From Candidatus Saccharimonadota bacterium (lineage in GTDB: Bacteria > Patescibacteriota > Gracilibacteria > BD1-5 > UBA2023), in contig JAXLZO010000001.1 of assembly GCA_046350815.1 (NCBI GenBank), positions 630,001 through 662,000 of the forward strand: DNA of 32,000 nt. The letters are read 5' to 3'. The notes beneath the pieces were generated by a model. It was given only the letters and a program-made list of their open reading frames with translations, did not search any database and had not been told where the DNA came from. Made by a program: the position numbers and the translations under genes. Positions within the stretch are counted from its first letter, which is position 1; each line of letters starts with the position of its first letter. Of this stretch, positions 1 to 32,000 are shown one piece after another.

Positions 1-1
1 G

Positions 2-634
2 GTGATACTCAGGAGCGAAGAATATCCGGATGCTTCATTTCTCACAGCTCAAGGTATCCAAGAACTTTGTATTCTCGATATTGATGAGAGATCAGGTTTT
101 GATACATTTTATGGATGAACATTGATCAAAGAATGAATCGACGTTCATCGAGAGGTGATTCCTTATCTGGGTATCAGAGATATTGGGGATTATGAAGCTT
201 ATGTTCTTACAAAGAACAAAGAATACCTCGCGAATCGTGTTCAGCAGAGAGAACTCTCGATCGCTGGAGGTGGCATGAATAAATACGAGCCATCATCCGG
301 AGGAAAGGTAAAAAATAGCACCTCGTCGCTACCGAGTGACGGAAAAAGTGACAATCAAATCTCAAAATGACAGGCGGGAGTTGCTATGGGAACACTTGCG
401 ATGCTCATGATTTTTCTCTTTATCATCGATATGAGAAATGGTGCACCCCTATTCGCCGATAAATCAAAATACAAGACTGGGAGTGGTGCTTCATCATCGA
501 GTCCATGGTCATCTGGAGGTCGTTGGACTTCTGGATCGAGTTCAAGTTCATCAAGTTACTCTTCGAGCTCAAGTAGTAGCTCGAAGAGTGTAAGTTCTTT
601 TGGCGGAGGCTGATTTTCTAAGTGAGGAGGGTAG
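2..634 (+). CDS. TPM-domain-like (YgcG-type) membrane protein, 5' partial
   Basis: The frame stays open from the window edge when TGA (116, 134, 368, 611, 623) is read as Gly, and ends at TAG 632-634. It has one TM helix (GTLAMLMIFLFII) followed by a Ser/Gly-rich tail ending GGGGFSKGGG. That layout is typical of YgcG/TPM proteins. Confidence 0.45.
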
Positions 635-635
635 T

Positions 636-1832
636 ATGCAAATAACACCACATATCTCACCACAACGTGAAATGGATACTCAATATGTCACAGAAAAAGT
701 AGAAGCTCTGTATGGAGATCTCAATCTCCCAAAAGACTATTTTGACTATGTGGATAATGAGGTATTTGTGAATTTGTCGTCCGAGGAAGATGAGAATCTT
801 CGAACTCTGGTGAGTCGTGTCGATGCGATCATGCGACAGGCATATATCTATGCCTATGAAGAGCGATATATTCGACTCGATGAATATCGTCCTTGGCTTG
901 ATCGTTTTCGTCAGGAATATCCCTACGATGAGCATTTCATAGCTCGCTATGATGCAGTATTTGATAAGAATGGTGTGATCAAATTTGTTGAGAATAATGC
1001 AAATACTCCTGGGATGCAATTAGAGTCGATGTATTTTAGTGATTGGCTCACTCCGGCTGGATATACGAGTCATGCAAATCGTATCCGATCGAGCATCCTT
1101 GATTTTTGGAGGCGAAAGAGAGATGAAAAATGACTCAAAAATATTGCTATTCTCACAGCCTACACATTCGAAGAAGAGGATCATCTTGTGTGTCGTACCT
1201 ATGCGGAAATACTCTCAGAAATCTTTGAGCCATCATCTTTGGTAGTAGGAGATATCTATGATATGCACATTGTTGACGGACAAGTTTTTGTTCGTTGAAT
1301 CCCCGTTGATGCTGTTCTTTCTTATTTTCCACTCGAATTCTTTTTGACAGATTATGAGTTTGCTGATGATTTCTTTCAGGTGGTATTCGATGGATGATGT
1401 TTCTTAGCAAATCCTATTGAATCAATCATTCTCCAGGATAAGTGACTCTTTGCAACGATTCATGAACACAAATCGAAATTTTCTGAGGAAGATCAGCTTA
1501 TTATCGAACAGCATATTCCCTATACACAGCGCAAGATGCCTGATTCGAGTGATGGATGGATTGCAAAATGGCGATTTGGGAGATACGGTCGTGAGATATA
1601 CAAAGCTCATTTTGAATGAGAAATCGTCGAAGAGTCTCATTATATTTATCAACAGTATTTTGAGCCGCAGAGTATCAATGACAAGAATGATTTCCTCGTA
1701 TTTTCCATCTATACGACGATGCGAGAGGTGCTTGGATATATCGTGCGTCGGCAATTTCGGCACACGACGGATGACAGAGATAATGTTGTAACGATGGTGT
1801 ATACGGATAATACAAAAAGCTTTATTTGATAA
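636..1832 (+). CDS. glutathionylspermidine synthase-like ATP-grasp amidoligase (YgiC/YjfC-type)
   Basis: ATG 636 follows GGAGG (626-630). Fragments 600-1133 and downstream join in frame 0 through TGA at 1131, 1296, 1395, 1443, 1617 and 1827; the stop is TAA 1830-1832. Family-like motifs: NNANTPGMQLES, PLEFFL, ANPIESIILQDKGLFATIHE, WIAKWRFGRYGREIY, YIYQQYF, and a C-terminal ...RRQFRHTTDDRDNVVTMVY. Confidence 0.7.
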
Positions 1833-2209
1833 TGATGTCTATGGAAATATTTATTTTAATAGCAATGGGTCTCATTTTTGGAGCACATAATGTAATTATC
1901 AAGCACTTCAAAGGAACTCATCGCACGATGATCATTGTCTGATTGATTGTCGGGTTTCTATCCCTCATATTTGGGATGGGTTGAATGATCGCTTTCTTTG
2001 TATTTTGTTTTGCATTTTATACGATGATGTGTGCATTTCGCCGAACCAAGAATTCAAATAATATTCCAGCTCTTCCGGTAATTTTTACCGTGATCACCTT
2101 CTTTATATTTATGTTTCTTGCAGCGGCATTTAATAGTATAGCTACATTTTTTCTTGCAAGCGTTTGCCTCTGTTATTGGTGAGTGCAATATATGTTTGCT
2201 ACAAAATAA
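1832..2209 (+). CDS. small integral membrane protein (125 aa), unknown function
   Basis: ATG 1832 overlaps the upstream TAA (TAATG). The frame runs through TGA at 1940, 1982 and 2180 to TAA 2207-2209. About 4 hydrophobic helices (MEIFILIAMGLIFGA, MIIVGLIVGFLSLIFGMGGMIAFFVFCFAF, VIFTVITFFIFMFLAAAF...). Confidence 0.5.
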
Positions 2210-2247
2210 CTTGTTTCTGATACGAAGTAAATTCTCGCTCAATTATC

Positions 2248-2562
2248 ATGTTTATGCATTTAGATCAGTTTAAAATACATTTCGGACTAGGTATTGCTAT
2301 TGTACTCAGTATCCTTGGGCTGTTTTTTGGTAATTATATTTTATTTTTTTCCGCTCTCATTACACTTGCTGTGACGTTTTTTTGACCAACAATTGCGTTG
2401 TTCTTCGTAATTTTTGGCTTCTCATTATGTTCAGAAGCTCCCATTATGGGAATGGTTGTGCTATCAATAATCATCGGCTGCTGAATATTTATACTCTCTC
2501 CATTTTCTTTCTGGGAAATTCTCTGAGACCTGATAAGAAGGCTTGCTCGCAGAGAATCTTAG
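2248..2562 (+). CDS. small integral membrane protein (104 aa), unknown function
   Basis: ATG 2248; in-frame TGA at 2383, 2482 and 2524; TAG 2560-2562. Hydrophobic throughout (GLGIAIVLSILGLFFGNYILFFSALITLAV...). Confidence 0.45.
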
Positions 2563-5860: not shown

Positions 5861-8002
5861 ATGGCGATCTCAAAAGATCTCAAGAATATCCGAAACTTCG
5901 GTATCTGTGCTCATATCGATGCTGGTAAGACTACTACATCGGAGCGTATTTTGTTCTACTCTGGAAAATCTCATAAAATCGGTGAAGTTCACGATGGTGA
6001 GGCAACTATGGACTGGATGGAGCAAGAGCGAGAGCGCGGTATTACTATTACTTCTGCTGCGACGACAACAGAGTGGAAGGGAATTCAGCTTAATCTTATC
6101 GATACCCCAGGGCACGTAGATTTTACGATCGAGGTAGAACGTTCTATGCGTGTACTTGATGGTGCAGTTGCTGTATTTGATAGCTCTCAGGGTGTTGAGC
6201 CTCAGTCTGAGACCGTTTGGAAGCAGGCAGATAAGTATGATGTTCCTCGTATTGCTTTTGCGAATAAGATGGACAAGACAGGTGCATCATTCAACATGAC
6301 GTACGAGTCTATTATCAAACGTCTTGCTGGTAACAAAGTTCTTCGAATCCAGATGCCAATCGGTGAGGAATCAGATTTTAGTGGAATCATCGATCTCGTT
6401 GCTATGAAGGCATATGAGTTCGAAGGGAAGATGGGTGAGAAGGTTGTTGAGATTGCTATTCCTGCACATCTTCAGGCAGAAGCAGACAAGCTCCATGCAG
6501 AGCTCGTAGAGCGTGCAGCTGAGCAAGATGAAGAGCTCATGAATAAATTCTTTGAAAATGGAACTCTTGAGCTCGCAGATATCAAGAAAGGTCTTCGTAA
6601 GGGTGTGATTTCAAGTTCTCTCTATCCTCTTCTCTGCGGTTCTTCACTTATGAACAAGGGTGTTCAGCTTGTTCTCGATGCAGTTGTGGATTACCTCCCT
6701 TCTCCAATGGATGTAAACAATGGTACTATTACTGGTACTGATCCAGATGATGAAACTAAGGAGATTACTCTTAAACAAGACCCAAAAGAACCTCTTGCAG
6801 CTATTGCCTTCAAGGTAATGACAGATCCGTTCGTAGGTCGTATTACGTTCGTTCGTGTTTACTCTGGTACACTCACTTCTGGTTCATATGTATACAACTC
6901 TGTATCAGGACAGAAAGAGCGTATCGGACGTCTCCTCCAAATGCATTCAAATCAACGTCAAGAGATCGAAGAGATTCCGGCTGGTAATATTGGTGCTGTT
7001 ATTGGTCTTAAGGATACAAAGACAGGTGATACACTCTGTGATGAAAATGCACATATTGTTCTCGAGCGAATGGTATTCCCAGAGCCAGTTATCTCTATCT
7101 CTGTAGAACCAAAGACCAAGGCAGATCAGGAAAAAATGGGTATGGCTCTCAACAAGCTCGCAGAAGAAGATCCTACCTTCCGTGTTAGCTCCAATACTGA
7201 GACCGGTCAGACGATTATCGCAGGTATGGGTGAACTTCACCTTGAGATTCTCGTTGATCGTATGAAGCGTGAGTTCAAGGTTGAGGCAAACACCGGTGCT
7301 CCACAGGTAGCATACCGTGAGACATTTACACAAGCAGTTATCGATCAAGAAACGAAGCATCAGAAGCAAACTGGTGGTCGTGGACAGTATGGTCATGTTG
7401 TAATGACATTCGAGCCGATTACTCCTGAGATGCGTCAAGCTGATCCAGAAGCACTCAAGGAAGAGAATGTATTCGTGAACAAAATCGTTGGTGGTGTGGT
7501 CCCTCGTGAATATATCCCAGGTATCGAAAAGGGTCTCAAAGCTGCATACTCTCGTGGTGTGATCGCTGGATACCCAATCGTTGATGTGAAGGCAACGCTC
7601 ACCTTTGGTAGCTACCATGATGTTGACTCGAATGAACTCTCGTTTAAGCTTGCTGCGTCAAAGTGTTTCCGTGAAGCATCAAAGAAAGCAAAACCAGCAC
7701 TTCTTGAGCCGGTAATGCTCGTAGAGGTGAATACTCCAGAAGAGTATATGGGTGAAGTTCTCGGTGGACTCAACTCAAAGCGTGGTCAGATCATCGAGAT
7801 GACAGAACGTGGTCTCGCGAAGATTATCCGAGCACATGTACCTCTCTCTGAGATGTTCGGATATGCAACAGACCTCCGATCTTCATCTCAAGGTCGAGCA
7901 ACCTACGTTATGGAATTCGCTCATTACTCTCAAGTACCAAACAATATTACTGAGAAGATCCGAGCAGAACGTGGTGTGAAATTCGAAGAAGATGATGAAT
8001 AG
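5861..8002 (+). CDS. fusA: translation elongation factor G
   Basis: [33 protein letters not shown]..., [13 protein letters not shown], and full-length EF-G domain order (713 aa). ATG 5861, TAG 8000-8002. It contains no in-frame TGA at all. Confidence 0.97.
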
Positions 8003-8158: not shown

Positions 8159-11092
8159 ATGAATACTACAAATAGCACCATAACCGTCACACAAAATCAT
8201 AATCATTCCGCAAATACATTTAATGATTCCAATACGGTGGATTTTGAGCAATACATAGAGCAAGTCAAAGCAATGGTCTGACAGGTTATACATGAAGAAG
8301 CAAAGGAAGATATACCATTATCTGACGATACTCCTATTGATTTGTCGAATATGAGCGATGAGGAGATTGAGGTATATGCAGAAACCATTAAAGAAAATCC
8401 ATGGATGTTCTTGTCCATCTGAAAGTATCTTCCGAAACCTCAACATCGTAACCTTCTTGAATCCTTGTTACAAGATGAAAATATAAGTGAGGTTTTTGAA
8501 AATCTAGCCCAATATTTAGATATCCCATGGCTTGATATATCTGATCAGCAGTATCTCCATACAAATATTATAGGAAAGTTATTAGCTCATAATAAGCCTA
8601 TAATTAACTATTGGCGAAAGTCATGAGTGGATTTGATTTTGGACAATTTTGATAAATTTATCGGAATCGAATCATATCATAAGAGGATAGTAGATCAGCT
8701 ATGGACAGAGTGAAAAAAATACAAAGTTATTCATAATATCAAGAAATTCAGAAATATTGATGAGTACTATGGGGAAATATTAGCATTCTGTATAGAGCAA
8801 GATGACACAGATAATGTAGCTGAAGAATGCATATACTTTATACTCTCTCAACCAGCTTTTATACCATCAAAAGAATTTATCAATACATGTCTATCAAAAC
8901 AGTTATATGCTTATTTGATAAAAATTGCCGATAAATATGATGAGGATTTTGCTCAGAATATAGCCAATCGTATTTTGAGTAATAAAAAAGACTGGCATAT
9001 TTTATTCGAGCATAGAGATATATTTGATTTTGTCGATTATCGAGAGATCGCTCAACAATTGATAAATGCATGATATTACGAGTTTCTCATAGATATACTT
9101 GATAAAACTCCTGAAATTGAGCAACTCCACAGAGAAATTGTTATGAAGATGTTGCATGATGATTGTCGAATAAGTTTACTTCCAGAATATCTCGAAAAGT
9201 TTCATAATATTGAAGACCTTCATCCACAGATCGCAAATAAACTTATTGAAAAAGGTTATCACCATAACTTTCTCCCATATCTTTATAAATTTGTTGGCGT
9301 TGATGAAGTTGCCATCGCCCTTCGGATGATCGAACAAAATAGTGCTGATAGATTTTTGCATTACTTTAATCCTCAAGCATTGCAAAATTATGAATGAAAA
9401 TGATTTAACAGATCATTATTTCAGAAAGAAGATATGAGAAATATTATCAAAGCTATTGTAAACAGAGGGGAATATGGATTGTTAGCTCAAAATATTCATA
9501 TTCTCCCTGAGATTGACCCGTTGAAATTTGCCCATCATTTGCTAGATATTAAAGAATTTCAAGCGCTTGCATATGCTCTTGGTAATTTTCAGTGATTAGG
9601 GTACGAAGAGTTGATGACCCTTTTTTGCCATGGATATGGAAGTGATATTTCCCATGATATAAAAAGTTTTACAAATCTCGATCCAAAAGTGCAAAGATTT
9701 TTTCAAAAGCTCAAATGAAAAGTGTCAGATCAACTAATCGTGGGGAAGCTTTCTCGATTTTCTGATCGAGTGAAAAACTTAAGGGAAATGCTTGACTATA
9801 TGCTTGTATACAAACAATGAGCTATTGTTCCATTTATACAAAAAATAACGGATGCTTGGGATATGTGAATGCAGACGAATTTTTGAGCATTGAGCCATCT
9901 TACTGATACTCAATGGATCGATGGAAAAGAAACAACATATGTAAAAGAACATCTTCTCAAGAATTTCGAAAAACTGCTGGCTATAACGAATGATACAGGA
10001 AAAGAAAAGAAAATGCAGTCCTTTCAGCAATATCTCTCAAGTGTCAAAAACTTTGATGCAACAAATATTGTACTCCTCCAAAAGCAATATGAACCAGTTG
10101 TTATTAAGTATTTTGAGAGAATTTTGGATCATAAATTATATACGACTATCAAATCACATCTTTGAGATATTTGATCAGAATTGATTTCAAGACCTCTGCA
10201 GAATCGTAATTTTATCGAGATATTTAAAATGTATCTCAAGACTCCTATCAATAAAGAACAATTTAAAAGCATCTTGCAAGCATATATCAACAACGAGAGT
10301 ATTGAGGATGTAAAAAAACTGCTTGATAATCCAAAAAATAATGAATGGAGATCAAAAATGGAAGACCAATGAATGGATATGTCATATTTCCTTCAAGAAC
10401 ATAGACAGACCTTTCAGATTCAGAAGGATGAAGAACATTCCCATGATCAGGATATCCAGTATTTTTATGGAATTGCCAAAGGTTATATGCAGCAATTAGG
10501 ATATAACGATGAAATTCAAACCGTTGAGGATCTTGTTTCAGTTTTTCAAAGAGAATGGAAACCAAAAGAAAATCAGGAGTTGATTTACCAAAAATCTTGA
10601 TTCACACAAAGTGAATTTGATCAAATTTTTGCAAATATAGAGCTACAAGTTCGATCCATACAAGAACTATTTCATTCACAAAAAGCGAAAAATATAACGT
10701 CAATTACTCTATACCGAGAGACTAATCCTATGCGTGTTTTGATGATGGGAAACTGGGTAGATGGAAGTTGTCTGAGTTTTTATTCCTCCGTTGGTAATTT
10801 TTGGTCAACTGCCATCAATGCTCTAGATATCAATAAAAGTGTTTTTTACTTTGAAGACCAAAATGGAAATATAATTGGTCGTGTATTGGTAGCAATTGAT
10901 AATAATTGAAATCTTCTCCGTTTTCATGTGTACAAAAAAGGAAATATCTCAATCAATCTTGATCAGTATTTTGATCCATATATTCGAGATATTGTACAAA
11001 AATCTAGTATGTGAATGAATGGAGATGTTGAATTGGTAGACTTATTGAATGGAGAAAAGTGGTATAAGGATCCTGTTTATGTTATAAAATAG
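8159..11092 (+). CDS. large hypothetical protein (977 aa), helical-repeat-like with a Cys/Trp-containing C-terminal domain
   Basis: A single frame-2 ORF from ATG 8159 to TAG 11090-11092. I checked every codon: 18 in-frame TGA and no TAA/TAG. It absorbs track ORFs 9143-9397, 9890-10165, 10181-10372 and 10373-10600. A possible promoter is TTGCAT (8116-8121), 17 nt, TGTAAT (8139-8144). Confidence 0.7.
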
Positions 11093-11205: not shown

Positions 11206-12642
11206 ATGGATTTCTCCAGCCTCGCGACTCCTCTTTTTCTTTTCATCGTTGCCTATCTTGCCGTCGATCTTCTCATCGGCCTCTATGTTGCACGTCGTGT
11301 GAAGACTTCTGCAGATTTTATCCTTGCAGGGAGGAGCCTCTCGCTTCCAGTCGTTATTGCGACTGCTTTTGCGACTTGGTTCGGCTCTGAGACGATTATT
11401 GCAACGGCTGCTGAGATGCTCAATCATGGGTTTCTCGGAGTGATCACCGATCCTTTTGGTACAGCACTGTGCCTCATACTTATTGGTATCTTCTTTGCGA
11501 AGAAACTCTATTCACTTCATCATCTCACGATCGGTGACTATTATCGAGAACGATATGGGAGATTTGTAGAGATTATCTGTTCACTCATTATCGCGCTTTC
11601 GTATTTTGGGTGGGTTGCAGCTCAATTTATAGCACTTGGAATCATATTCCAAACAGTGACATGAGGAGCGATTTCGCAGACGTACGGTATGTTTATCGGC
11701 GCGCTCGTTGTCCTCATCTATACCTATCGAGGCGGTATGATCTCGGTAGCGATCACGGATTTCATCGAGATGTTAGTGATATTTGTCGGTCTCATCGCAA
11801 TTTTTTGGTATCTTCAGGATAAGGCTGGTTGATTTGCTCATGTATTGAGCGTAACACCCATTGATCATTTCCGATTGACTCCTGCGGATTTCACAGCAAA
11901 AGATTATCTCGCCTACATTGCAGCATGGATCACGATTGGTCTCGGTTCAATACCGCAGCAAGATGTTTATCAGCGTATCATGTCAGCAAAAAATGCGAGT
12001 ACCGCGCGTTGGGGATCGATTATCGCAGGATTGTTATATCTCTCGTTTGCTATGATTCCTCTCGGTCTTGCACTCATTGCTCGAGTTTTAGAGCCAAGTT
12101 TTATTGGTATGAATGATGCAGAGGGCGTGATTCCTTCACTGGTGCTCAATCATGCTCCGCTTTTTCTTCAGATTATTTTCTTTGGCGCGCTGCTCTCAGC
12201 TATTATGAGTACGGCTTCTGGTGCACTTTTGGCTCCTGCGACGATCCTCTCTCGCAATTTTCTCCATCCGCTCTTTCGGGGCAATCTCTCGGATAAGAGT
12301 TTTCTCCGCCTGACTCGTATCTGTGTGATATTCGTAGCAATGGTTGCTATGTATCTTGCTCTCGGTGACTCGACGATATTTGAACTCGTGCAAAATTCCT
12401 ATACCTTTGTGCTTGTTGGAGCCTTTGTACCACTTGCATTTGGTCTCTATACCAAGTGGGCAAATACAGCTGGAGCAGTATTATCAAGTAGTTTTGGAAT
12501 TATTGCTTGGATCTATGCGAGTATGCATGAGACGGAGGCAACGGTAGTACCTGCATTGATTGTATGATTTCTTGCATCTATTCTTGGTATGATACTGGGT
12601 GGTATTTTACTAAAAATTATCAAATTTTATTCTCGTTCTTAG
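11206..12642 (+). CDS. sodium:solute symporter family (SSF) transporter
   Basis: ATG 11206. Fragments join through TGA 11662, 11830 and 12565, ending at TAG 12640-12642 (478 aa). The N-terminal signature DFILAGRSLSLPVVIATAFATWFGSETIIATAAE and 12 or more TM segments are typical of SSF (PutP/CHT-like) carriers. The substrate cannot be determined. Confidence 0.85.
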
Positions 12643-18974: not shown

Positions 18975-18998
18975 ACCACATGATGTGGTTTATTTTTT
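18973..18998. terminator. bidirectional terminator between convergent genes
   Basis: aaaccaca/tgtggttt stem (18973-18991) followed by ATTTTTT. It overlaps both stop codons. Confidence 0.6.
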
Positions 18999-19670
18999 GT
19001 TTTGTGTGATATAGTTTTCTATTACCTTCTTGAGTTCTTCGGGATCTTGTGTATTTGCCTGAATAAGTGCACCATCAACATAGAGACTCGGGGTTGCATT
19101 AAGCTTCCATTTGTCTGCTTGTGATTGTTGTAATTTCAGCTCTCATTCATACCATTTATCGTCGATGCATTCCTCCATTTTTGCACCGTCGAGTCCAATC
19201 TTCTCAGAGAGAAGAGCAATTTGTGAGGTATTCATGACAGTTTTTGCTAAACCTTTTATGGCACGTTCTGACTCTGTGGTATAGATAAGATCTCGATATG
19301 CATCATATTTTCACGCACTCGCAGCACACAGGGCTCATAATGCTTCTTTTCTTGAATTCTGATGATTTGGAAGTGGATAATTTTTTCGTTCAAATGTAAT
19401 AGATCCACTTTCAGCCATTTGAAGAAGCGTTGGCTCTGAGTTTTTATGAAAAGCTTGACAACCGGGACATTGGAAATCAGCGAAGAGCGTCACAACGGTT
19501 TTTCCTGATCCCTCCGAGAGTTTGAGAGTTTGGTCCTTAATTGGAGCAATACAAGTATTTGGTGCCTGATTTGGTTGATCGCAGGGGATATAAGCAACTT
19601 TTCCGCATCCAACGAGGAGAGAAGCGCTGATGATACATCCGAGCACAATGGCTCATTGAGAGAGATTCAT
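18990..19670 (-). CDS. DsbA-family thiol:disulfide oxidoreductase lipoprotein
   Basis: ATG is the complement of 19668-19670. The signal peptide has a lipobox (MNLSQGAIVLGCIISASLLVGC). Thioredoxin-fold active site FADFQCPGCQAFH. It joins the tail through TGA, ending at TAA (complement of 18990-18992), 226 aa. Confidence 0.8.
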
Positions 19671-19779: not shown

Positions 19780-20373
19780 ATGATTACCAAACCAGCACTT
19801 CGCTATGCTCTCAACGCTCTTGAACCAGTTATTTCGCAAGAGACACTCGAGTATCATTCTGGAAAACATCATCAAACCTACGTTGATAATCTTAACAAGC
19901 TTATTGCTGGTACAACCCAGGAACTTGATGATCTTGAAACTATTATTCGTCACTCAAGTGGTGGAGTATTCAATAATGCGGCACAGATTTGGAATCATAC
20001 TTTCTATTTTGATTCACTCTCTCCTGAAGCCCTTGCTCGCGGTGAAGGCAATCTCCCGAGTGGCGCACTTGCTGAGAAGATCAATACTAAGTGGGGGAGT
20101 TTTGAAGTGTTCTGGTCGGCATATGCTGATCTTACGGTTAAGACATTCGGATCTGGATGGGCATGGCTTGTAGAGAAGCAAGATGGATCGCTCGATATTA
20201 TCTCTACCTCAAATGCTGAGACTCCACTCACGAATGAGACTCTCGCCCCACTCCTCACGATCGATGTCTGGGAACATGCCTACTATATCGACTATCGCAA
20301 CCTGCGAGCGAAGTATGTGGAGAGTATGAAAAAAGTAATTGATTGGGGAGTAGTTGCGGGGAGGATGAAATAA
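19780..20373 (+). CDS. sodB: Fe-type superoxide dismutase
   Basis: LEYHSGKHHQTYV, FNNAAQIWNHTFYF, GSGWAWL, DVWEHAYYIDYRN. The AAQ..WNH and IDYRN variants favour the Fe form. Intact ORF with no TGA. Confidence 0.93.
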   Translation: MITKPALRYALNALEPVISQETLEYHSGKHHQTYVDNLNKLIAGTTQELDDLETIIRHSSGGVFNNAAQIWNHTFYFDSLSPEALARGEGNLPSGALAEKINTKWGSFEVFWSAYADLTVKTFGSGWAWLVEKQDGSLDIISTSNAETPLTNETLAPLLTIDVWEHAYYIDYRNLRAKYVESMKKVIDWGVVAGRMK

Positions 20374-20399
20374 AAACACCATTTGGTGTTTTTTATTTT
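20372..20399. terminator. bidirectional terminator between sodB and giant gene A
   Basis: aaaaacacc/ggtgttttt stem with a 4-nt loop, then a T-run. Confidence 0.6.
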
Positions 20400-23300
20400 G
20401 CAAGTTCTGTTTCAAGATATTTTTGAAGTTGTTTGAGGGTAATAGGTCCAAGGATACCATCCTGTCCGTTTTTATCATCAGATGCATTCATATTTATGCG
20501 TCGCTGCAATTCCTGAATATTTGCAACTGTAGGAGGCTTGAGAAATTCAAGTATGTCATTGCATGCTGTTTTTGACTGAATATCTGCATTATGATCGTTT
20601 AGAAAGGTTTGGAATGTTTGAAATTCTCTTGATCACATAAAACGCTTGGTGATGATTTCTCGTGTTTGAGTCGTCAGGATATCTCATCTACCATTATCTC
20701 GGCGGATATTAATCTCACTTACTTTTGTACCGATATCACGACATGCTTCTTCAGGTGTCACAGGAGCTGCGATTGGCGTAGTCGGATTGGTAAGAGATAC
20801 AGGTGTCAGCATCTTATTCTTATCATCGCCACTGCAGGCATAAAGAATTCCACCAATCAGAAGAAGTCCACCGAGACCCCAAGCTTTTCGTGTCCAATCA
20901 GTAGGATTTTTTGCTGCTTCTGGCGGGAGAACTTGAGTTCCTTTTGGGAGCGCAATTGGTCCTTCTGGAGTCACGATTTTGAGAGTATTTGTTCCATCGC
21001 GGATAATAGTCGGGAACTGGTTATGATTTACTGCAACAGAAACATCTCTAGAAACATCTCTCGGAGTATTTTTGAGACGATATTCTGATGCAATTCGGGC
21101 AAAAAGAATCGTCGGTCTGTGTTGCAGTTTTTGTTCACCTTTAGGAGTGGTAGGTTTATTCTTTAATTTAAGAAGTTCGGCCGACGCTTGTTTTAGTTGA
21201 TCATTGAACTGTGTGAGATTCTCTGGCTTTTGTGATCGAACCTCTTTGGTAGCGTTATAGATTTCTTTTTCGTATTTACTACCACCCCATCACTGAGCCT
21301 CAGCATCACGGAAACTCTTCTCAAATGCTGCATCGTTCAGCTTCATGAGATCGTGTATCTTGGTGCGTAGAGATTCTCTCAGAGGATCGCTACTCTCGAG
21401 TCTTAACATACTTGCAAGATCATCTTCCACTGTTTGCACTACTTTTCCTTTGTCTGGAGATGCTCATTTTTCTGCCCGAGCGATCGATCATTCGAGGTCT
21501 TGTATTTCTTTTTGTATACGACCAATCGCTGCTTGATTTTCTACAAACTCGCTTGTTGATTTTCTCGTATACTGTCTGATTATAGCTTGTCGCGTTATGA
21601 GCTCTTGATTGAGTGTGGCCAATTGTTCTCGGGCAGCAACGATATCGACGATAGCTTCTGGTTTGTATTTTATCTCAATAATTTTGTTTCCAATATGTCT
21701 TTCTCGCTTCCGTTGCTTCGGATCTGAGGGGTCGCGATATGTTCTAGTATCATATGTTTGATATCAAACTTTTGGATCCTTAGATACAGGAATTATAAAG
21801 TCTACCTTTGTTTCATTCGGACCAATTGATAGGTATATTTCTCATGGTTCTGCTTGTATGGCTCGATTTGTTTCAAGTTTTTCACCTTTTGAGTTTACTA
21901 TGTATATTTTTGAATCAGCATCATGCAATCTTGTTAACAATATTTGCTCCATTTGTGTTCCATTCTCCCCCAGTGTAGCTTCCATGTTAAAAGATTTAGG
22001 AGCCATTCTTTCGATAGTCGCATAATCAGGTATGAACACTATTGCATCTTGAGGGGTTTGTAGTTCTCCGGTTTTTGTTTTGAATCTTTGGATTCTTCAA
22101 TCAGGAAGGTAACGGTATATAGATCATTTTGCAGTGATGATCTCATCAACTGGTCTCTGAAGTTCCATTTTCTCGGCTTTCCCGGTTAATCCTGATTCCA
22201 TGAGCTTCGCTCTCTCCTCCTGTGTAAATAGCTCTTTTTCTGGTCTTTGTTTTTTTGGTAATTCCGCTCTTCGTTTGCCATATTGGAGTATCTCTAGCTT
22301 TGCTTTGAGATCTCCTGTTGACCACTGAAATATACTACCTTCCCCAGTATTATGAGCGAGTATGAGTGCATCTTTTTCCTCTTGATTGAGCGACCTTCTG
22401 AGGATTCTCTCTGCTTCAAGAATTCTCTCGGGATTGCTGAGTCATGCAACCTTCTCAATCATACGAATATACGCTTCGGCTCCTATTTGATCTCTGAAAT
22501 GTTGCGGAACTTTTGTGAGAGCGATAGCATAATCCTCTTGACTCAGTGTAATTCATTCCGGTACAGAAGACTTGTATGATGCTAATTTGGTATTGAGTTT
22601 TGGAAAGGCTTGTGCAAATTTTTCAGCCATTCCCGGGGCTGTTCGGAATGCGACCGTCATAGCAATCATATTCGGAGTAAGCTCAAAATCCCCCGTCTCA
22701 AGTCCATGAAGCAAATAGAGAGCGGATACATCTCCCGCACTGAGTACAATATTTTTTTGGGTAATGATTCATTTTTGTGCGGATATGCCAAGTTTGGCTA
22801 TGAGAGGTCAGCTGAGAAACTTCTCAACTCCAGCAAAAGTCCCGAACATGATAGCGTTTTGTGCAAATCTTTTTGCGAAAGATTCGAGAGACACACGTTT
22901 TGCTCCATCACCTTGCGCCAGGGGTCCATATGCCTCAAGAACAGTTTGTGCGGTTGTAAATTTCAGTGCTTCTCCGGCAGTCCTGACAATCGTACCTCCC
23001 GATTCCACCGCACGAACCGCTCAAGCGGCACCTTTGAGAGTTATCTCCGTAGCAGTCGCTACTTTCCGCGGTATATATTTTACAACATTACCAGATCAAG
23101 TTCAGGCATTTTTCGCAAGCGTTACCGCCTTCCTCATTCTGCTCGCGTTTTCGGTGACGGTGGCAAGATTTTTTGTCGCAAGTGCTGCTCGTACTCATCC
23201 TGCTACTTTTGCTACACCAAGAAGAATTCCGGCAGTTCCGAAGCTCAAAGCCATGCTCACAAAAGTAATAGCAAGTTCCTTGGTCATTACAACATTTTCA

Positions 23301-24370
23301 TCGGTGAAATTGAACGCACCGTAGAGACCTTTCATATCATCGTAGAGTTTCCCGATTGCACCAAGCTTTTCGCCACCATAAGTAGAGATGTACTTATCAG
23401 TAGCTTTCATGAAGATATTCTGTTCGGTGATACTTGCTATGATTTCAGTTTTCTTATTCTGATATTCTAGATATTGAGGGTATCATTCGAGTGATTTCAG
23501 GATCTCATCGAATTGTTTTTGAGCATCTTGTTGTGCAGATTTCTTAAATCCATCATAGTTCTTTTGATAAAATTCTCCGAGTTTTTTATAATTTGCATCT
23601 TCTGCATCATCTCCACTTGTTTCTCAGTCCGATTGTCGTTTCATTTTACGGGTTGCAACAACTCAGGAGTTTGCGGTATCGCCAATGACACGAAGTGCTG
23701 ATGCAAGATTTGCATCAGAAGCTTTAATAACATCAAATCTCAATGTTCATGCATCACTGTTACGCTTTTCAACTATGATTTTCTCCAGATCACCCAATAA
23801 TTTTTTCGTATGTACTAGCGTTCCTCCAACTCTTGTTCGATATTTCGCTATGGCTGCACTGATTTCGGCATCGTCCGATCGTGTTTCAAGTGCATCGATA
23901 AAGGTAGCGATACGATCGTATCATTCCGTATCCTTCTCTTTGCCTACTTGATCCGGGGTTCCTCACAAAAACTCTCCCACTCTTTTGCTATTTTTGCTAT
24001 ATCGTGCTATGAGTTCCCCTATGGATACAGTGTCTGTGCCGGTGTAGTTGAAGTTTATATCGTTTCCCTCCCATCCTTCGAATTTTGTCGTGACAGATCT
24101 CGCAAAATCTCATTTTGCTGAGGTCGCAACCCAGTGCTGCATGTTCTGGATTTCTCGCAATGGGGCAAGATAGGTATCTTTCATCGAAGTGAGCCTCTTG
24201 CTATTTTTCTCGAGTGTATCGTAAGCTTTCTGAAGATCCCGGTAGATCTCAACACGCTGCAAAAATTCTTCTGGTGGAAATGTATCTGCTGCTTTCGCCA
24301 TTTCTGTGGGAAGAGATTTTTTTACGTATTCAACTTTTTGTTGAATATCGGAGCCGTTTTCTGGAGGCAT
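20393..24370 (-). CDS. giant membrane-anchored protein A (1325 aa), unknown function, C-terminal peptidoglycan-binding-like motif
   Basis: One minus frame from ATG (complement of 24368-24370) to TAA (complement of 20393-20395). I checked every codon: 24 TGA and no TAA/TAG. It absorbs track ORFs 24110-24370, 23195-23410, 22808-23008, 21842-22039 and 20684-20974. Gly/Ala-rich hydrophobic segments occur mid-protein, a TM helix (AWGLGGLLLIGGILYAC) lies near the C-terminus, and the end carries ...DGILGPITLKQLQKYL. Confidence 0.7.
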
Positions 24371-24444
24371 ATAGAATAAAATTCAATAAATATGATTCGA
24401 GGATATCATATTTGCTTCGATCATGCTCTAAAATTATATTGACA

Positions 24445-24740: not shown

Positions 24741-25433
24741 ATGATCAGTAAAACTACCTATAGGAAAAAATCACGAATTTGAGATGCAAAAATAAGAGAA
24801 ATTGTGAAATATTTTTCTCTGGATTTTACTTCAGATAAAACAGCGGTATTAACAGGTCTCAATCCAAAAACAACACAGGATTGGTATAGATATATCAGAA
24901 AGGCGATAGCCTTTCTCTGTGAGAGAGAAAAGAATGAAATATGGACTGGAAATGTTGAGATAGATGAGAGTTACTTCTGACCAACAAGAGTCCGATGAAA
25001 GAGAGGAAGGTGAGCTGGTATGAAGACAATAGTCTTTGGTTTACTCAAAAGAAACTGAAAAGTATATACTGAGATAGTTCCTGATGTAAAAGCAAGGACT
25101 CTCGTGCCAATCATTCGATGAAAACTTCGTATAGAAGAGTCTGAGATTAACAGTGATGGATGGTGAGCTTATGATGGGCTTGTAGATATTGGATATGAGA
25201 AACACTACCGTGTTCATCACGGAGCAAATGAATTTGCAAGATGAACTCAACACATTAATTGAATAGAGTCATTTTGGAGTTATACCAAAAGAAGACTCTC
25301 TCAATTCAATGGAATCAAGAAAGTCTACTTCTACTATTTTTTGAAAGAATCTGAATTCAGATATAATTGTCGTATTCAATGAAAAGATATTTATAAGGAA
25401 GTGCTAAAGTTACTTCGTCAATATAACCCGTAA
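24741..25433 (+). CDS. IS1595-family DDE transposase (ISXO2-like), 230 aa
   Basis: Table-25 translation: ...VEIDESYFGPTRVRGKRGRGAGMKTIVFGLLKRNGKVYTEIVPD...INSDGWGAYDGLVDIGYEKHYRVHHG...HINGIESFWSYTKRRLSQFNGI...FLKESEFRYN. There are 10 in-frame TGA, and I checked all codons. It is not visible in the standard-code track. Confidence 0.9.
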
Positions 25434-25446
25434 CTGGTTTAGACCC
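25432..25446. repeat. IS right terminal inverted repeat
   Basis: AACTGGTTTAGACCC. It overlaps the transposase stop codon. Confidence 0.9.
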
Positions 25447-28400
25447 TATTTCCATTAACATCGATTTGATATTCGCTCACATCTCTTCCTTCTAATTTAG
25501 CAATATCACTAAGAATCTCTCGGTTAAATCGCTCAGCAGTTTGTCATGACAGAACACTTCCAATCTTAGCAATATTCTCTTTGATTTTTTCCTCAAATGT
25601 GAGAACCTTCGGAGATTTTACCACCCTTTCATCCACATCGTATTTACCATTAAGCGGTTCCCAGAAGCTTCCTGGGCGTAATGATTCTCGAACCATTCGT
25701 ACACCAATATCCCTGAGTGCTTGCTTAAGATTTTCTTGTGCATCTTTTAGAGTCGCTCAAGTTATCTCTTTAAAATTAAGCAAGTATTTTGTGGGATTAA
25801 TTTTTTGTATGTCGAGAACAAAATGAGCATCGCCCAAAGTAAGTGATTCTTGTATAACACTATTGTTTTGAGAATTTACTATATCTGAGAATATCTTATC
25901 AATCTTATCTTTTATGGTTTTTAATTCATTATGAGGCTGAGCTTCAATTCAATCCTTTGGTTCTTTCAGCTTGAATGATACTCCATTAATTCTATCAATG
26001 TATTCTTGAATGTAAGGAGATGCATTATCATCCTTTTCATCTATTGGCTTTGGAGTATTTAGAACTGGTATTCCATAAGAGTTATATTTTGATTTTCTAA
26101 TATCAAAAGAGTCAAATGGATGTGATTTCCTCATATTATCTGTATCGATCGAATGCGGATAATCGAGACTCTCATTTACAAGTTTTGAGAGTCGTGCAAT
26201 TTCTGGTGAGAAGTAATCATGATCATGTTGCGCTTTGTTTCATTTAATCACCCAGTCTGGAGATACACCAAAAAATGGAAACCATTTACCTTTCTTCTTT
26301 CAGCTTGTTCCCTGACTGGAACGATAAAATGGTACAGCCATACCACTCTTGGTCTTCATTACAATATATGGTCGATTGCTATCTATAAACCCAATTCTTG
26401 GAATTTGCTTGCTATCACGCATCACATCTCACTCTGCGATTAATTTGGCAATTCTGTCACCATATATTGTATTGACATCCTTTTTTGCATCGATGGCTTT
26501 ATCGGATTTACCCTCAGTCTTTTCGTTTTCAGACTTATGTGAAATCTTTGGAATCGGTCCCACGGTATTATTTTTGAGATAATCGTCCCACGTAGGAATA
26601 TCTTTCACTCAGAGTGTCTTGAGCTCCTCTTGGAGTCAGAGGATTTTTCGATCTAAGTAACGATGGTCTTCCGAGTGAGTTTCATGGGGACCTTCCTTTC
26701 CTGACCTGTTGTCAAAATCACGTCTTCGTCCAAAGAGTTCATCAAGTTTTGTACGGAGATCTTTTTCATGTTCTACTTTCTCTCTCTCCTTTCCGTCCAT
26801 ATCATCGGAGGAATCTTTTATTGGTACGGTCGGAGGAGGTGGGGAAGAAGGGGACACCGGATCGGGAGTTGGAGTCGGTATAGGCTCAACTGGTGGTATT
26901 GGATCATCACTGTGATCAGATTCACCCAGATGTTTAGTTGGCTTTGGCATCGGAGGTACCTTGATACGAGATCCTTTTTCTCATTTGGTTGTTTCATGAT
27001 ACTTATTTGCTCCAAACGGTAAGAGAATAACATCTTTGATCTTATCAAGCCAAGATCCAGATGGTGTCGGAGTTGGAACCGACTCAGGAATTGGTGCTGG
27101 AAGAGGATTTGGTACAATGACGGGAGTGAGCACACCAGTTCCACTGCCACGAATACTTGCGAAGATCTCATACTTTCCGCCTACATGCTTAGCGATCTCA
27201 AGATGTTGAAAGCTTGAGTTTCCGAGTACAGTACTGAGCTCGGTACTTGGAAGAAGTTTCCCATGTACATCGATAGCAACTTCATAGACTTTTCCGTTTA
27301 CAGTCACGAGTCCTACTGCATCACCACTCCGAACTATATCACTCAAATGACCATGAGATGATGAGTGTCCGAACATATGAGATACTTCAAATCCTCCACT
27401 TGAATCTTTCCAAAGCCGAAGCTCATTACCATCAAATGTATGAGTATTATTATCCATCCAGACGCGATCTATATGGGAAAGTGGAGTGATGCTTGATGTA
27501 TGGATAGGTGTTGGGGCTACTATCGTATTACTAGAAGTAGGCATATGTGATGGCACAGATATATTCGTATCACCCATAATACCATGATACGCCCCCTGTA
27601 CTCATGCGAGAATACCACCGATTCCAAGTCCTACTCAATAACCAACTGCAGCAAACTTGAGTCATTCCATGTTGCCATATTTTCTTGCGAACTCTTCACG
27701 TTTTTTGTAGATTTCTTGTGCACTTTCCTTGAGTGATATCACGATCGTTGCAATATAATCGGTATTTGGAGATACTTTGTACCAGTTTTTTCCACCAAGA
27801 TCTCATGAATTAATTGCCATAAGCATACGGGTGTTTTGTTCGGTGGAATTTCCTTCTCCATCATATTTGAGCCAGTTAATACCTGTGAGTTTGGTTGATT
27901 CACGTTTTGCAAGATACAAGAGAGCGGTCTCTTGGCGTTCTTCCAATGCAAGAGCTGGATCAATAACCTTCAGATACATGTCTGTAATGGAGTGCTGGTT
28001 GATGAGTGTATCAAGCTTATTTTGTTTTTCTGTGAGAATTTTATTCTCTTTGCGAGCATTGAGAGTGGTTTTGCCACGAGCAATGAGTACTTGTCTATCA
28101 AGCTCTTCACGTTTGCTTCGATGAGCAGCAACCACACCTCATACGAGTGATCATGGAATGAGTCCAAGTGTGAGGGCTTTTGTAAGAGTATTGAAACTTA
28201 TACTACTTGCTGTCACTGCCGCAGTCGCAGCAATTGCAGCTGTTGTTGGATGTCTGAGAATGCCAGAAACTCTTGATGCAATTGGGCCTGCACTACCGAT
28301 CTTTTGATCAAGCTTATTGAGAAATCTTGAAATACCTGATTTCGGAACATTATTTTTCATCTGTGTTTCTCAGCGCTCATTTCCGACGCGACCTATATCA

Positions 28401-30205
28401 AAGAGGTTCAGTCCAATATCCGTTGTTCTGAGATCGACTCCTATAAGTGCTGTTTCCACTCGCTGGAGAGCCCTATCCAGTTGATTGAGCTCGAGAAGCG
28501 AGCCTGATTGAAGCTCGAGAGCTGATTTGAGCTCTTTGAGTTTTTCTGTTCGTGCCGCACGATCGACTGCCGGCGTACTGAGGACATCTACGATGATTTG
28601 TTTGGTAGTAGCATCACGAATTGTGGGCTTTTGTATTTTTTCAAAATCAAGATAACTGCCGCCTTGGATCGAATCATCACTGTTTTTTACAAAGTCGATG
28701 ATGTCATCTTCGTGGAGGGTTCCATCTCGGAGTTGTTCTCGTATACCTCGCTTGATCTCTTCCTTCTGTGATTGAATATAAGCACCTCGTCCATTACGAT
28801 GTACGGCCCGTTTTACGAGTCTCTTGAAAAATCCTTCTTTCGAAATGTCTTCCATCTTCTGATCATAGTCAGACATGGCGAGTTGATCTGCAAAAATATC
28901 AAGATATGGCTCAACATCGACAAGATCTAGGTGAATCATGCCATCCGGTGACTCAGATGCATGATCGACGTGAGAATGAATACCATCGCCATCATTATCA
29001 CTTTGGATTTCTGCTTGTGCGAACGCATGACCATATGCCTTTTGAAAAGCATCTTCATAGATCATTTTTAAATCTTGCTCTGAGAGACCGTAGACATCAT
29101 TCTGCTTTACTCCATTCTCGATGTATTGAGAGAGATATTCTTTGTCTATCTTTCTATCTTTCATGACGAGAAAATCCTGATAAATTGCATGAGAAAACTG
29201 CCTTCTTATCTCATCGCGTTGTTCCTGGCTGAGCGTATTCAATGCTCTTTGTTGTTCATCTTGTTCAGATGTTGGTTTGCTCTGTGAAGACTGTGTTATA
29301 TGAGATCATCCATATACCTCATTAAGAGCTTGGTTATAGAGTGGCCGAGCTTGGTCTACCCATTTTTGGTCACCATCAAATCCTTGTCGAAGAAGAATTT
29401 CTCGTTTTCCAAGCATATCAGCTTTTGTTTGTCCGTATCGTTTGGTGTCTTGAAAAAGATTACGATACGAATCTAATAGGTGTCAATTAATTCTTTCTCG
29501 GCTTTGATTCCTGGATTTTTTTATGCCTTCATCAAGCTGTTTTTTATATTGTTCCAGAAGCATATCCAAGGTTTTTGCTTTGGTTATATCTTGCTTTGTT
29601 TGATCAATTCTTTTCTTTTCATCATCAAAAATATTCTCGCTTTGACGTCATGATTTTTGTCCCATTGAGCTCCATTTCACTATCATACGCGTCATATCTC
29701 CCAGAAGATTGTTCTGAATTTTTCAAAATATGCTTTGTTTTTCCCCGTATGCCTTCATATCTTTTAGGGATTGTTCACCCTTTGCAAATATATTGGGATC
29801 ACGCTGGTCGTATGGCATTGCATCTGGTCGTTGTGCAAGAAAGGATGTACGTGCGGACTCCAATTTTGCTAAAAATCACTTCATAAGTGAGTCATGAAGA
29901 TCGGAAGCTTCCATTCTTGTCATATTTTTACTCTCTATTTCGTTTCTGACGTATTCGTCGAGAGCATCAAAATATGCATTTTTGTCTTTCTCGGCAAGGT
30001 TGCACGCAATGAGTCCATCGAAGACTTTGTCTTCTGCAGCAGTATAGGAGAGTGGAAGAGTGGCATTTTTGCTTCCCCTCTCTTGCTTCGCTGATGCATT
30101 GTTCTTCGCTCGCCACTCCCCAAAGATATCGGCTGTTTTCTGTTTGAGAGCTGATACTGAATCAGTAATTTTGTCTCGAGTATTTCCGAGTGTTCCTTTG
30201 TTCAT
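25439..30205 (-). CDS. giant membrane-anchored protein B, IS-truncated (1588 aa as it stands; about 1655 aa before insertion), unknown function
   Basis: One minus frame from ATG (complement of 30203-30205), checked codon by codon: 21 TGA and no TAA/TAG. It now ends at a TAA supplied by the IS right end (complement of 25439-25441). It absorbs track ORFs 29876-30205, 28370-29242, 28151-28360, 27803-28135, 26981-27577, 26636-26950 and 25949-26134. It has two Gly/Ala-rich hydrophobic segments and Pro-rich linkers. Confidence 0.7.
25447..25453. repeat. target-site duplication (right copy)
   Basis: TATTTCC directly abutting the right inverted repeat. Confidence 0.8.
25448..25618 (-). repeat. C-terminal protein module, copy 1 (coding tandem repeat)
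   Basis: KSPKVLTFEEKIKENIAKIGSVLSGQTAERFNREILSDIAKLEGRDVSEYQIDVNGN, which continues as ...IVR across the IS. Confidence 0.75.
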
Positions 30206-30214
30206 ATAACTTTA

Positions 30215-30508
30215 TTAAAGACTTTGTAAAAATAATCGAACCTCTTGGATAAAAATATCCTGAATGAGATGATCAACTTCATTTGGTCGTATGCCCTTGA
30301 GAAATCCATAACCGTCCACTTCTCCATCTGTTTCGAGAAGTTCCTTATAAATTTCGACCTCATCTGGCGTGAGCTTCTCTGAAAGAATTCGTCCAAATGT
30401 AAGTCGTTCGAGTGACTCGATTGTATGAGCAAGGCTTTGCTCAAGTGGATCACCAGAGAGTCCAGTTTTTTGAAGACCGGATCGTAGAGTATTGATAATT
30501 TGTTCCAT
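30215..30508 (-). CDS. small acidic hypothetical protein (97 aa)
   Basis: Intact ATG-TAA ORF with no TGA. Its stop lies 9 nt upstream of the gene B ATG. A TTGACA (complement of 30560-30565) sits upstream as a possible -35 element. Confidence 0.55.
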   Translation of the reverse strand: MEQIINTLRSGLQKTGLSGDPLEQSLAHTIESLERLTFGRILSEKLTPDEVEIYKELLETDGEVDGYGFLKGIRPNEVDHLIQDIFIQEVRLFLQSL

Positions 30509-30582
30509 AGCGGTATATAAAATGAATATCTTCTACACGATACTATATAAATAAATATTTGTCAAAATATACGCTTTCGAAA

Positions 30583-30612
30583 CTATAACAACCCTTATAA
30601 GGGTTGTTATAG
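30583..30612 (-). terminator. terminator hairpin after gene C
   Basis: Perfect 30-nt palindrome ctataacaaccctta/taagggttgttatag, 11 nt downstream of the gene C stop. Confidence 0.65.
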
Positions 30613-30623
30613 TGAAATTTTTT

Positions 30624-32000
30624 TTAATCCTTTTTTCCGGTGAAAAATTTTTTTAATCCTGTAAGTGCATTTTGGAAGAATCAAGGTTGTTTTTCCTGCT
30701 GCACTATCTTCTGCGATACTGAAGCTTTTTTTGGTGTAGGTTGTTGCATTTTTACCTGCTTTTGCTTCGGTGCATACTCTTTATGTCCAAGCTCATTAAT
30801 GAATTTTCGTAATGCGAGAATAGCATTTTGACTCTTTTCATTTTCCCAGTCTATATTTTTCAGATATTTCTGAATTCACCCCTCACTCATGAGTATCTTT
30901 TTCTCCATTCCTGGAAATACAACTGCTTCATTTGGTGAGTTAAATTGCCCAAGGAACTGATAATACGCCTTCATACGGGTCTCTCAGAGATCTTTTTCTT
31001 GTTGGATTTTATCGTTTTCGTCTTGAAGGATCGCTATTTCAAGGCCTATAAGTTCACTTTGTTGATCTATGGAAAGCTTATTAAAACTCTTAATTCGCCG
31101 AGGATTGCTATCAAAATTTTTCTGTGCACGTTCATTCGCAAGATGAGATATCTCATCATCAGTGTAGAGATTTTTCGTGATTTCTTCCGGTTTGATAGCT
31201 GTTATGAACTCTTCCCATCCAGCATCTGTTGTGATTGCAGATGCAAATTCCGCTTGATGTCTTTTTATGGTGGCAATTCTTTCATCCTCAATTCTTTTTA
31301 ACTCATTCCGATCTTTTTCTTGGATTTTGTAGATGACCGATTCAAGATGATTGCCTTGTCTTTGAGCATCTTCATGATTTCCAAGAACAATAGGCTTAAG
31401 GAGATCGGTAGCTCTCTCTTCAACACTTCTTCCATCATCTTTTCCACTTGGATTGAGAAGGAGTTCTATCGCCTTTATTTGCTCTTCGAGAAGTTTATAC
31501 TGCTCTGGACGACGATCGAGATAGAGATGCTCAAGAAACTTCTTTTTTGGATAGTTCCACCACTCCTTTGCTTTCTCTTTAAAAGTTTTTTCTTCCCCTT
31601 TGTAGAGTTTAATAGCAGGATTGTATTGTTCTAAAAGCATGTATACAAAGTCTCGAGATTGCTCTGTAGTAACATCATTATCACCTTCTTGTTTGATGCG
31701 TGTGCTGTTGATAAGATGGGCAATGTCCTCAGCAATTTGTTCCATCAGTCTTTGTGTATCTAAAAGTACTTCGTTATAAGCATCCTTTCCACTTATCAGT
31801 ACATTCTTATTTCTCGATTTTTTTGAGCTAAATCGTCTTGCTTGAATTTGTCGAAAATTTGCAAGCAAACCATGCATAAAGAGTGTCAGTGAGACAAGTA
31901 ATATAATTTTTGCCGTACGTGGAAGTGATGCAGTGATTGCTGAAGCAAGTTTTCATTCTCTTTTCAAATTATCTATATGTTCAAGAAGGTTGCGAGCCTC
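30624..32000 (-). CDS. large helical/coiled-coil membrane-anchored protein C, 5' partial (more than 458 aa)
   Basis: The minus frame of ORF 30984-31877 stays open to the window edge upstream, through a TM-like AKIILLVSLTLFMHGLL. Downstream it reads through TGA (complement of 30984-30986 and others) to TAA (complement of 30624-30626). The sequence is charged and heptad-like; I recognise no motif. Confidence 0.6.

Follow-up and report, generated by a model that had tools for sequence, protein, structure and literature searches.

The window analysed here (the whole stretch of 32,000 bp, positions 630,001 to 662,000 of contig JAXLZO010000001.1) has a G+C content of 39.1% and accommodates 22 gene models, most of which are interrupted by TGA if the standard stop codons are applied. 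Aligned residues, profile scores, strain exchanges, codon composition and identity to deposited GenBank proteins together indicate that TGA is a sense codon for glycine in this genome, as in NCBI translation table 25. This reading had been proposed in the initial annotation, made from the sequence alone, which had also described the G+C content as low; the value does lie on the low side, but only moderately so. The genes and TGA codons at the centre of the analysis are the following (aa, amino acids; X, the residue encoded by TGA).

14684–15781, minus strand: GTPase HflX, 365 aa with eight TGA codons, identified by Pfam, NCBIfam TIGR03156 and PDB alignments; with TGA as glycine, identical to GenBank MFO0763865.1.
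15335–15340, minus strand: tandem TGA TGA in HflX RQG-XX-IG; Gly-Gly in Mycobacterium and E. coli HflX.
15008–15010, minus strand: TGA in HflX DTI-X-FIR, in what we take to be the DxxG (G3) motif of GTPases; the two solved HflX references have Gly.
15383–15385, minus strand: TGA in HflX HM-X-PRI; Leu in Mycobacterium, Ala in E. coli.
16440–17195, plus strand: glutamate-5-kinase-like (ProB-like) amino-acid kinase, 251 aa with three TGA codons; with TGA as glycine, identical to GenBank MFO0763866.1 (hypothetical).
17067–17069, plus strand: TGA in kinase GTG-X-M; Gly in E. coli glutamate 5-kinase.
17203–18417, plus strand: prolyl-tRNA synthetase (ProRS), 404 aa with seven TGA codons, identified by Pfam, NCBIfam TIGR00409 and a PDB alignment in two blocks.
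17659–17661, plus strand: TGA in ProRS GILR-X-REFLMKD; the E. faecalis and S. aureus enzymes have Gly.
24741–25433, plus strand: IS1595-family transposase, 230 aa with ten TGA codons, identified by Pfam, NCBIfam NF033547 and GenBank MFO0763303.1.
25164–25166, plus strand: TGA in IS1595 SDGW-X-AY; Arg in three standard-code homologues, CGA in sister copies.
11206–12642, plus strand: sodium:solute symporter family protein, 478 aa with three TGA codons, one of which falls on a glycine of a solved homologue; a sister strain has GGA for the TGA at 12565.
18990–19670, minus strand: DsbA-like thioredoxin-fold protein, 226 aa with four TGA codons; aligned residues Ala, Gly and Glu.

With TAA and TAG as the only stops, the 22 gene models comprise 9,701 codons and contain 133 in-frame TGA codons, spread over 19 of the genes. 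Neither an in-frame TAA or TAG nor a frameshift is found in these codons, and all 22 models end at TAA (15) or TAG (seven); as the models were themselves delimited by TAA and TAG, their ends follow from the definition, and their freedom from internal TAA and TAG is partly a matter of construction. Independent support for the open frames comes from homology, because single alignments cross 31 TGA codons without a break in HflX, ProRS, the ProB-like kinase, the symporter, the DsbA-like protein and the IS1595 transposase. The spans are extensive, covering HflX residues 19–358 (seven TGA codons), ProRS residues 5–394 (seven), kinase residues 3–235 (two) and transposase residues 1–230 (ten). Pfam matches across the TGA-open frames were obtained for HflX, the amino-acid kinase, class-II ProRS, the transposase and the symporter, and further matches for a glutathionylspermidine-synthase-like protein, a Sua5/YrdC protein, the Tag glycosylase and the DsbA-like protein. 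Translation with table 11 would split the 19 TGA-bearing genes into about 150 pieces. Stop-to-stop open reading frames (ORFs) of at least 100 aa sum to 9,534 aa with the standard stops. The sum is 29,855 aa once TGA counts as sense, against 14,575 aa when TAA is freed and 11,905 aa when TAG is freed. The earlier statement that neighbouring ORF fragments are separated by TGA only, and never by TAA or TAG, is upheld, and the four recoded sites for which that annotation gave coordinates, at 15335–15340 (TGATGA, minus), 15008–15010 (minus), 17659–17661 (plus) and 17067–17069 (plus), are all TGA on the coding strand.

In order to avoid circularity, the residues opposite TGA were read only from homologues in standard-code organisms. 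At seven HflX TGA codons the Mycobacterium protein displays G, G, L, G, G, G, G and the E. coli protein G, G, A, G, G, R, G. ProRS from E. faecalis has G, A, G, D, E, G, G at the seven TGA codons of the window enzyme, and E. coli glutamate 5-kinase has glycine at both kinase codons that could be aligned. The nearest solved homologue of the symporter has G at one codon, and that of the DsbA-like protein has A, G and E at three. For IS1595, three plasmid-borne transposases served as references (Trichlorobacter lovleyi, the nearest; Acinetobacter ISAcra1; E. coli ISEc69), and the T. lovleyi protein reads S, G, G, G, G, G, R, G, G, D at the ten TGA codons. Taking the nearest standard-code homologue in each case, glycine occupies 21 of the 30 alignable positions (HflX 6/7, ProRS 4/7, kinase 2/2, symporter 1/1, DsbA-like protein 1/3, transposase 7/10) and tryptophan none, a glycine count with a binomial probability of P ~1e-15. 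The summed BLOSUM62 score over these 30 sites is +114 for glycine, +3 for serine, which is the next best residue, and –70 for tryptophan. The single TGA of the Sua5 protein lies beyond the end of its PDB alignment, and a PDB search with the glutathionylspermidine-synthase-like protein gave no match.

The profile scores point the same way. Translation of TGA as glycine rather than tryptophan raises the NCBIfam score from 326.7 to 349.7 bits for HflX (TIGR03156), from 348.5 to 368.0 bits for ProRS (TIGR00409), from 155.0 to 165.1 bits for the kinase (TIGR01027) and from 142.8 to 160.4 bits for the transposase (NF033547). Glycine thus outscores tryptophan in all four families, by 10–23 bits per protein and by about 70 bits in sum. 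These results bear out the claim of the initial annotation that tryptophan would fit none of the positions it had cited, and the aligned columns are indeed dominated by glycine. Its description of the cited positions as invariant glycines was overstated for two of about 11: the HflX HM-X-PRI column is not a glycine column in either reference, and the IS1595 SDGW-X-AY column holds arginine. The remaining cited sites are glycine in the standard-code references.

Codon exchange between strains provides a further line of evidence. A sister strain, represented by JGI contig Ga0558119_00860 (locus L081), shares about 90–95% nucleotide identity with parts of the window. Over 3,150 aligned codons, 31 window TGA codons correspond to 25 TGA, five GGA and one CGA in the sister strain; in the reverse direction, four window GGA codons and one window CGA read TGA there. 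The totals are nine TGA↔GGA exchanges, two TGA↔CGA and no TGA↔TGG, and TGG is constant at 43 of 43 sites. Under table 4, in which TGA encodes tryptophan, the synonymous change is TGA↔TGG. The rate of TGA↔GGA exchange observed is about that seen among the glycine codons themselves.

The nearest EF-G (elongation factor G) loci among reference genomes belong to a Patescibacteria metagenome-assembled genome (MAG; 84% identity) and a Candidatus Gracilibacteria MAG (71%), and the genomes that carry them also hold in-frame TGA opposite glycine. In comparisons with the more distant relatives L001 and L002, TGA is found opposite glycine in both directions, an example being an L001 EF-G TGA that corresponds to a window glycine codon; synteny with the window is almost nil, so that few orthologous TGA comparisons can be made. 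The closest EF-G relative, L002 (JASDUA010000073.1, the Patescibacteria MAG), has a G+C content of 57%, and its homologues of the kinase and of a 182-aa protein carry in-frame TGA opposite window glycine. UGA as glycine seems, from this relative, to be kept at a G+C content above the range of 0.21–0.53 reported in PMC8629427.

The composition of the window is consistent with the same assignment. Glycine accounts for 5.41% of codons without TGA and for 6.78% with it, TGA then making up 20% of glycine codons; tryptophan accounts for 1.04% by TGG alone and for 2.41% if TGA is counted with it. Glycine content including TGA is normal, and tryptophan content under table 4 is abnormal. The usage of TGA differs among genes, including the following.

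5861–8002, plus strand: elongation factor G, 713 aa, no TGA.
8159–11092, plus strand: hypothetical protein, 977 aa with 18 TGA codons, located where the G+C content of the window is lowest; no Pfam match.
14124–14669, minus strand: DNA-3-methyladenine glycosylase I (Tag), 181 aa, no TGA.
19780–20373, plus strand: Fe/Mn superoxide dismutase (SOD), 197 aa, no TGA.

None of the 56 glycine codons of EF-G is TGA (P ~3e-6), and GGT is strongly preferred there (44 codons). By comparison, TGA supplies ten of 20 glycine codons in the transposase and 18 of 43 in the 977-aa ORF. More generally, TGA usage is highest in hypothetical genes of low G+C and in the transposase, and EF-G, SOD and Tag do without it. 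TGA may accordingly be an A+T-rich glycine codon that is avoided under translational selection.

A reassignment of CGA and CGG to tryptophan, reported from Absconditabacteria and, for CGG, possibly from some Gracilibacteria (PMC8629427), was also considered. CGA is used 124 times in the window, and conserved EF-G columns place it on arginine three times and on glutamine once; CGG is used 21 times and falls, as read by eye, on arginine at three conserved positions in HflX and the kinase. As both codons align mainly to arginine, this reassignment was rejected for the window, despite its occurrence in the same broad lineage. TGG lies on tryptophan in three of three conserved EF-G columns.

Several observations weigh against UGA as glycine and have to be set beside this evidence. 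Nine of the 30 aligned TGA codons lie off glycine columns (Leu, Ala twice, Asp twice, Glu twice, Ser and Arg); most of these sites are in variable regions, and one, IS1595 codon 142, is on a conserved arginine. ARAGORN detected no tRNA gene of any kind in the window, and it identified no tRNA(UCA) on contigs of the same species or of relatives that total about 125 kb (L001–L006, L081–L086, L091 and L092). The same-species JGI and Logan contigs among these (L081–L086, L091 and L092) contain tRNAs for Leu(gag), Arg(tcg) and Lys(ctt) only. A genome of this size holds only 30–45 tRNA genes, and because of this the missing tRNA(UCA) is uninformative rather than negative. Likewise, the GenBank annotation is not independent proof, because NCBI assigns table 25 by taxon name; the resulting flag is reported to be wrong for some 'Gracilibacteria' that use table 11 (preprint 10.64898/2026.05.24.727570). 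No release-factor gene is present among the genes of the 32-kb window.

A metagenome scan with a tRNA(UCA)-shaped pattern returned, among the matches listed, mostly other tRNAs, and at least two tRNA(tca) genes, at L167 1609–1683 and L171 323–397, both on the minus strand and both starting with GCG. The L171 gene has the full G1:C72, C2:G71, G3:C70 acceptor stem together with U73, which was observed in L171 only. L167 and L171 are 34%-G+C contigs unrelated to the window genome, and neither gene could be linked to it as its tRNA(UCA). The L171 tRNA adjoins an ORF with five in-frame TGA codons, and on L167 more than ten tRNA genes are packed into a dense array.

Overall, the evidence points with near certainty to a window that uses table 25 and derives from a Gracilibacteria-type organism of the candidate phyla radiation (CPR), probably from the UGA-recoded BD1-5/Absconditabacteria lineage. 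The host assignment of the initial annotation agrees with the GenBank MAG, which is named Candidatus Gracilibacteria bacterium and whose deposited proteins equal the glycine translations. The recoded Gracilibacteria/Absconditabacteria clade corresponds to GTDB class JAEDAM01. In such a genome UGA would be an ordinary sense codon for glycine, with termination at UAA and UAG only. Between strains TGA behaves as a synonymous partner of GGA, and its use is heaviest in genes of low G+C, which are presumably expressed weakly. By analogy with the literature on this lineage, UGA would be decoded by a dedicated tRNA-Gly with anticodon UCA, bearing the glycyl-tRNA synthetase identity set G1:C72, C2:G71, G3:C70 and U73; termination at UGA would have been abolished through loss of release factor 2; and UGG would stay tryptophan, with which the EF-G columns agree (3/3).

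The reading of TGA as tryptophan by a tRNA-Trp(UCA), as in the Mycoplasma/Spiroplasma-type table 4, recovers the long ORFs just as fully, and it is implied by JGI, ENA and Logan calls for this organism and for IS1595 copies, which show tryptophan at TGA. It is contradicted by the following: tryptophan at none of the 30 aligned TGA codons against glycine at 21, profile scores 10–23 bits lower per protein, no TGA↔TGG exchange against nine TGA↔GGA with TGG invariant at 43/43 sites, and a tryptophan content that would reach an abnormal 2.41%. Table 4 is thus effectively refuted for the window genome and retains scarcely any probability. If TGA were instead a true stop, the genes would be pseudogenes or products of sequencing or assembly error. 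The fragmented appearance under table 11 would fit this, as would the fragments output by some public pipelines, such as a 164-aa Sua5 and HflX pieces of 47–81 aa. Yet TGA is the sole interruption in 9,701 codons, in which TAA, TAG and frameshifts never occur; 25 of 31 TGA sites are kept in an independently assembled sister strain, and a separate run yielded a Logan contig with 100% identity over 9.8 kb. The genes hit include essential ones (ProRS, HflX), and the TGAs fall on glycine columns, unlike random damage, which leaves the stop reading extremely improbable.

More subtle is a UGA whose meaning is ambiguous or depends on context, read mainly as glycine but with an appreciable share of termination or misreading (near-cognate Trp or Arg, for instance), and serving as a slow or regulatory codon. 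The absence of TGA from EF-G (0/56 glycine codons), SOD and Tag would be in keeping with such a role, as would two genes that finish TGA-TAA and the TGA on a conserved arginine column of a multi-copy IS1595. The literature offers rare non-glycine peptides at UGA in a BD1-5 bacterium (Hanke et al., PMC4032931) and the possibility that wobble at U34 blurs the distinction of UGA from UGG (Shulgina and Eddy, PMC8629427). However, ordinary codon bias explains avoidance in highly expressed genes, GGT being the preferred glycine codon of EF-G; the arginine-column case is a simple CGA-to-TGA transition relative to the sister copies; and genes that are essential or very long (one 1,343-aa ORF has 25 TGA codons) could not bear the 133 TGA codons if termination were substantial. 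Such ambiguity is therefore very unlikely. The probability that TGA encodes selenocysteine is practically nil. TGA is the selenocysteine codon, and ARAGORN labels a tRNA(tca) 'tRNA-SeC' by default, but the 133 TGA codons lie in 19 of 22 genes, with up to 25 per gene, and none falls on cysteine or selenocysteine in homologues. There is no selenoprotein family among the TGA genes and no selenocysteine insertion sequence (SECIS) or other Rfam element in the window, an Rfam search of which gave no match.

Compared with known systems, the window shows no difference in kind from those that use table 25: UGA is sense at glycine columns, UAA and UAG would be the sole terminators and UGG would still be tryptophan. 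The host also resembles table 25 hosts in being a Gracilibacteria-labelled CPR bacterium with a small genome (a 1.28-Mb contig), and its 39% G+C lies within the published range of 0.21–0.53. The likeness to table 4 systems (Mycoplasmatales, several insect endosymbionts and others) extends to the change of UGA from stop to sense and to the same long ORFs, and ends at the residue (glycine 21, tryptophan 0 at 30 sites) and at the exchange partner, which is GGA and not TGG. Because table 4 yields the same long ORFs, several public pipelines have used it.

The public record reflects both tables. Translations with TGA as glycine match letter for letter GenBank MFO0763865.1 (HflX), MFO0763866.1 (kinase), MFO0763868.1 (the 182-aa protein), MFO0763303.1 (transposase) and others, so this record has already been translated with table 25; judged from the sequence, that flag is right for the window genome. 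The JGI, ENA and Logan versions have tryptophan at every TGA (clusters P0047, P0048, P0061, P0062, P0065 and others), implying table 4, and large public protein catalogues consequently hold mistranslated copies of this lineage's proteome.

The IS1595 transposase has TGA at ten of its 20 glycines, and five of these ten are glycine in all three standard-code plasmid transposases. Copies are represented by at least five GenBank accessions in the same MAG and occupy five different loci in the sister strain (L081–L086, around position 10001–10693). At codon 142 (25164–25166) two of the three standard-code homologues read SDGWRGY, the column is arginine in all three and all sister copies have CGA; this TGA is thus a CGA-to-TGA transition, changing arginine to glycine, rather than a conserved glycine. 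A homologue search with the transposase (best 120 matches) was discarded as a test between glycine and tryptophan, since the matches come from recoded organisms and the test would be circular; the mixture of tryptophan and glycine among these 120 matches arises because each pipeline applies a different table. Most close IS1595 relatives in public data also have TGA at these sites. With ten TGA codons the transposase would be expressible only in a host that reads UGA as glycine. On these counts it is conceivable, if somewhat doubtful, that IS1595 (24741–25433) is a 'code-locked' mobile element that spreads among UGA-glycine hosts only.

The ProRS of 404 aa is a short form. It aligns in two blocks to a bacterial ProRS of 570 aa, about 130 residues of which are skipped; these presumably form the INS editing domain. 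Where they would lie, the window protein has a short CxxC...CxxC segment (VCDEC-X-LGHNSEIMNEQQFICSSCGSS), which looks like a zinc ribbon. The neighbouring kinase had been labelled ProB in the initial annotation, a label that could not be sustained: its TIGR01027 score of 165.1 bits (155.0 with tryptophan) falls short of the cut-off of 186, the match covers profile positions 1–233 of 363 and the GenBank name is hypothetical. Among solved structures its closest matches are glutamate 5-kinases (E = 6e-24). The protein is ProB-like, and its membership of the glutamate 5-kinases, like its role as one, is putative.

The other gene models of note in the window are as follows.

636–1832, plus strand: glutathionylspermidine-synthase-like protein, 398 aa with six TGA codons, the last immediately before a TAA; at 1296 the sister strain has GGA in place of TGA.
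13577–14110, minus strand: Sua5/YciO/YrdC family protein, 177 aa with one TGA, at which table-11 public calls end (164 aa).
15851–16369, minus strand: ORF between HflX and the kinase, 172 aa with two TGA codons; the identical Logan contig L091 has a gene call for it.
20393–24424, minus strand: hypothetical protein, 1,343 aa with 25 TGA codons; no Pfam match.
25439–30205, minus strand: hypothetical protein, 1,588 aa with 21 TGA codons; no Pfam match above cut-off.
30624–32000, minus strand: ORF fragment of 458 aa, cut by the window end.

The 172-aa ORF seemingly has no GenBank protein, because the HflX and kinase accessions are consecutive, and it may not be a real gene. Seven hypothetical proteins scanned with Pfam gave no family at or above the curated cut-off. 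The four long ORFs (977, 1,343 and 1,588 aa and the 458-aa fragment) together fill more than one-third of the window. Two genes end in TGA followed by TAA, at 1827–1832 (plus) and 12617–12622 (minus), and either reading of the TGA gives nearly the same protein; the TGA in each case could once have been the stop, with translation now running one codon further.

The assignment of UGA to glycine is already known in this lineage and is no new biology. Code 25 goes back to work published in 2013 by Campbell et al. and by Rinke et al. (both cited in PMC8629427), and UGA as glycine, with identity rules for the glycine tRNA-UCA, has been documented for Absconditabacteria and Gracilibacteria (PMC8629427). 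Proteomics of a BD1-5 bacterium in 2014 gave 97 glycine-specific against three tryptophan-specific peptides (PMC4032931), and prfB was undetected in any BD1-5 genome examined (PMC6851277). The annotation of the present genome is likewise known. The value of the result is practical, in that table 11 shatters 19 of 22 genes and table 4 inserts 133 false tryptophans in a 32-kb window, and direct confirmation from the sequence is the correct check on a table-25 flag that follows the taxon name. A multi-copy IS1595 frame that depends on UGA as glycine is only a mildly new angle; if IS1595 is indeed code-locked, it would offer a natural test of a changed genetic code as a firewall for mobile DNA.

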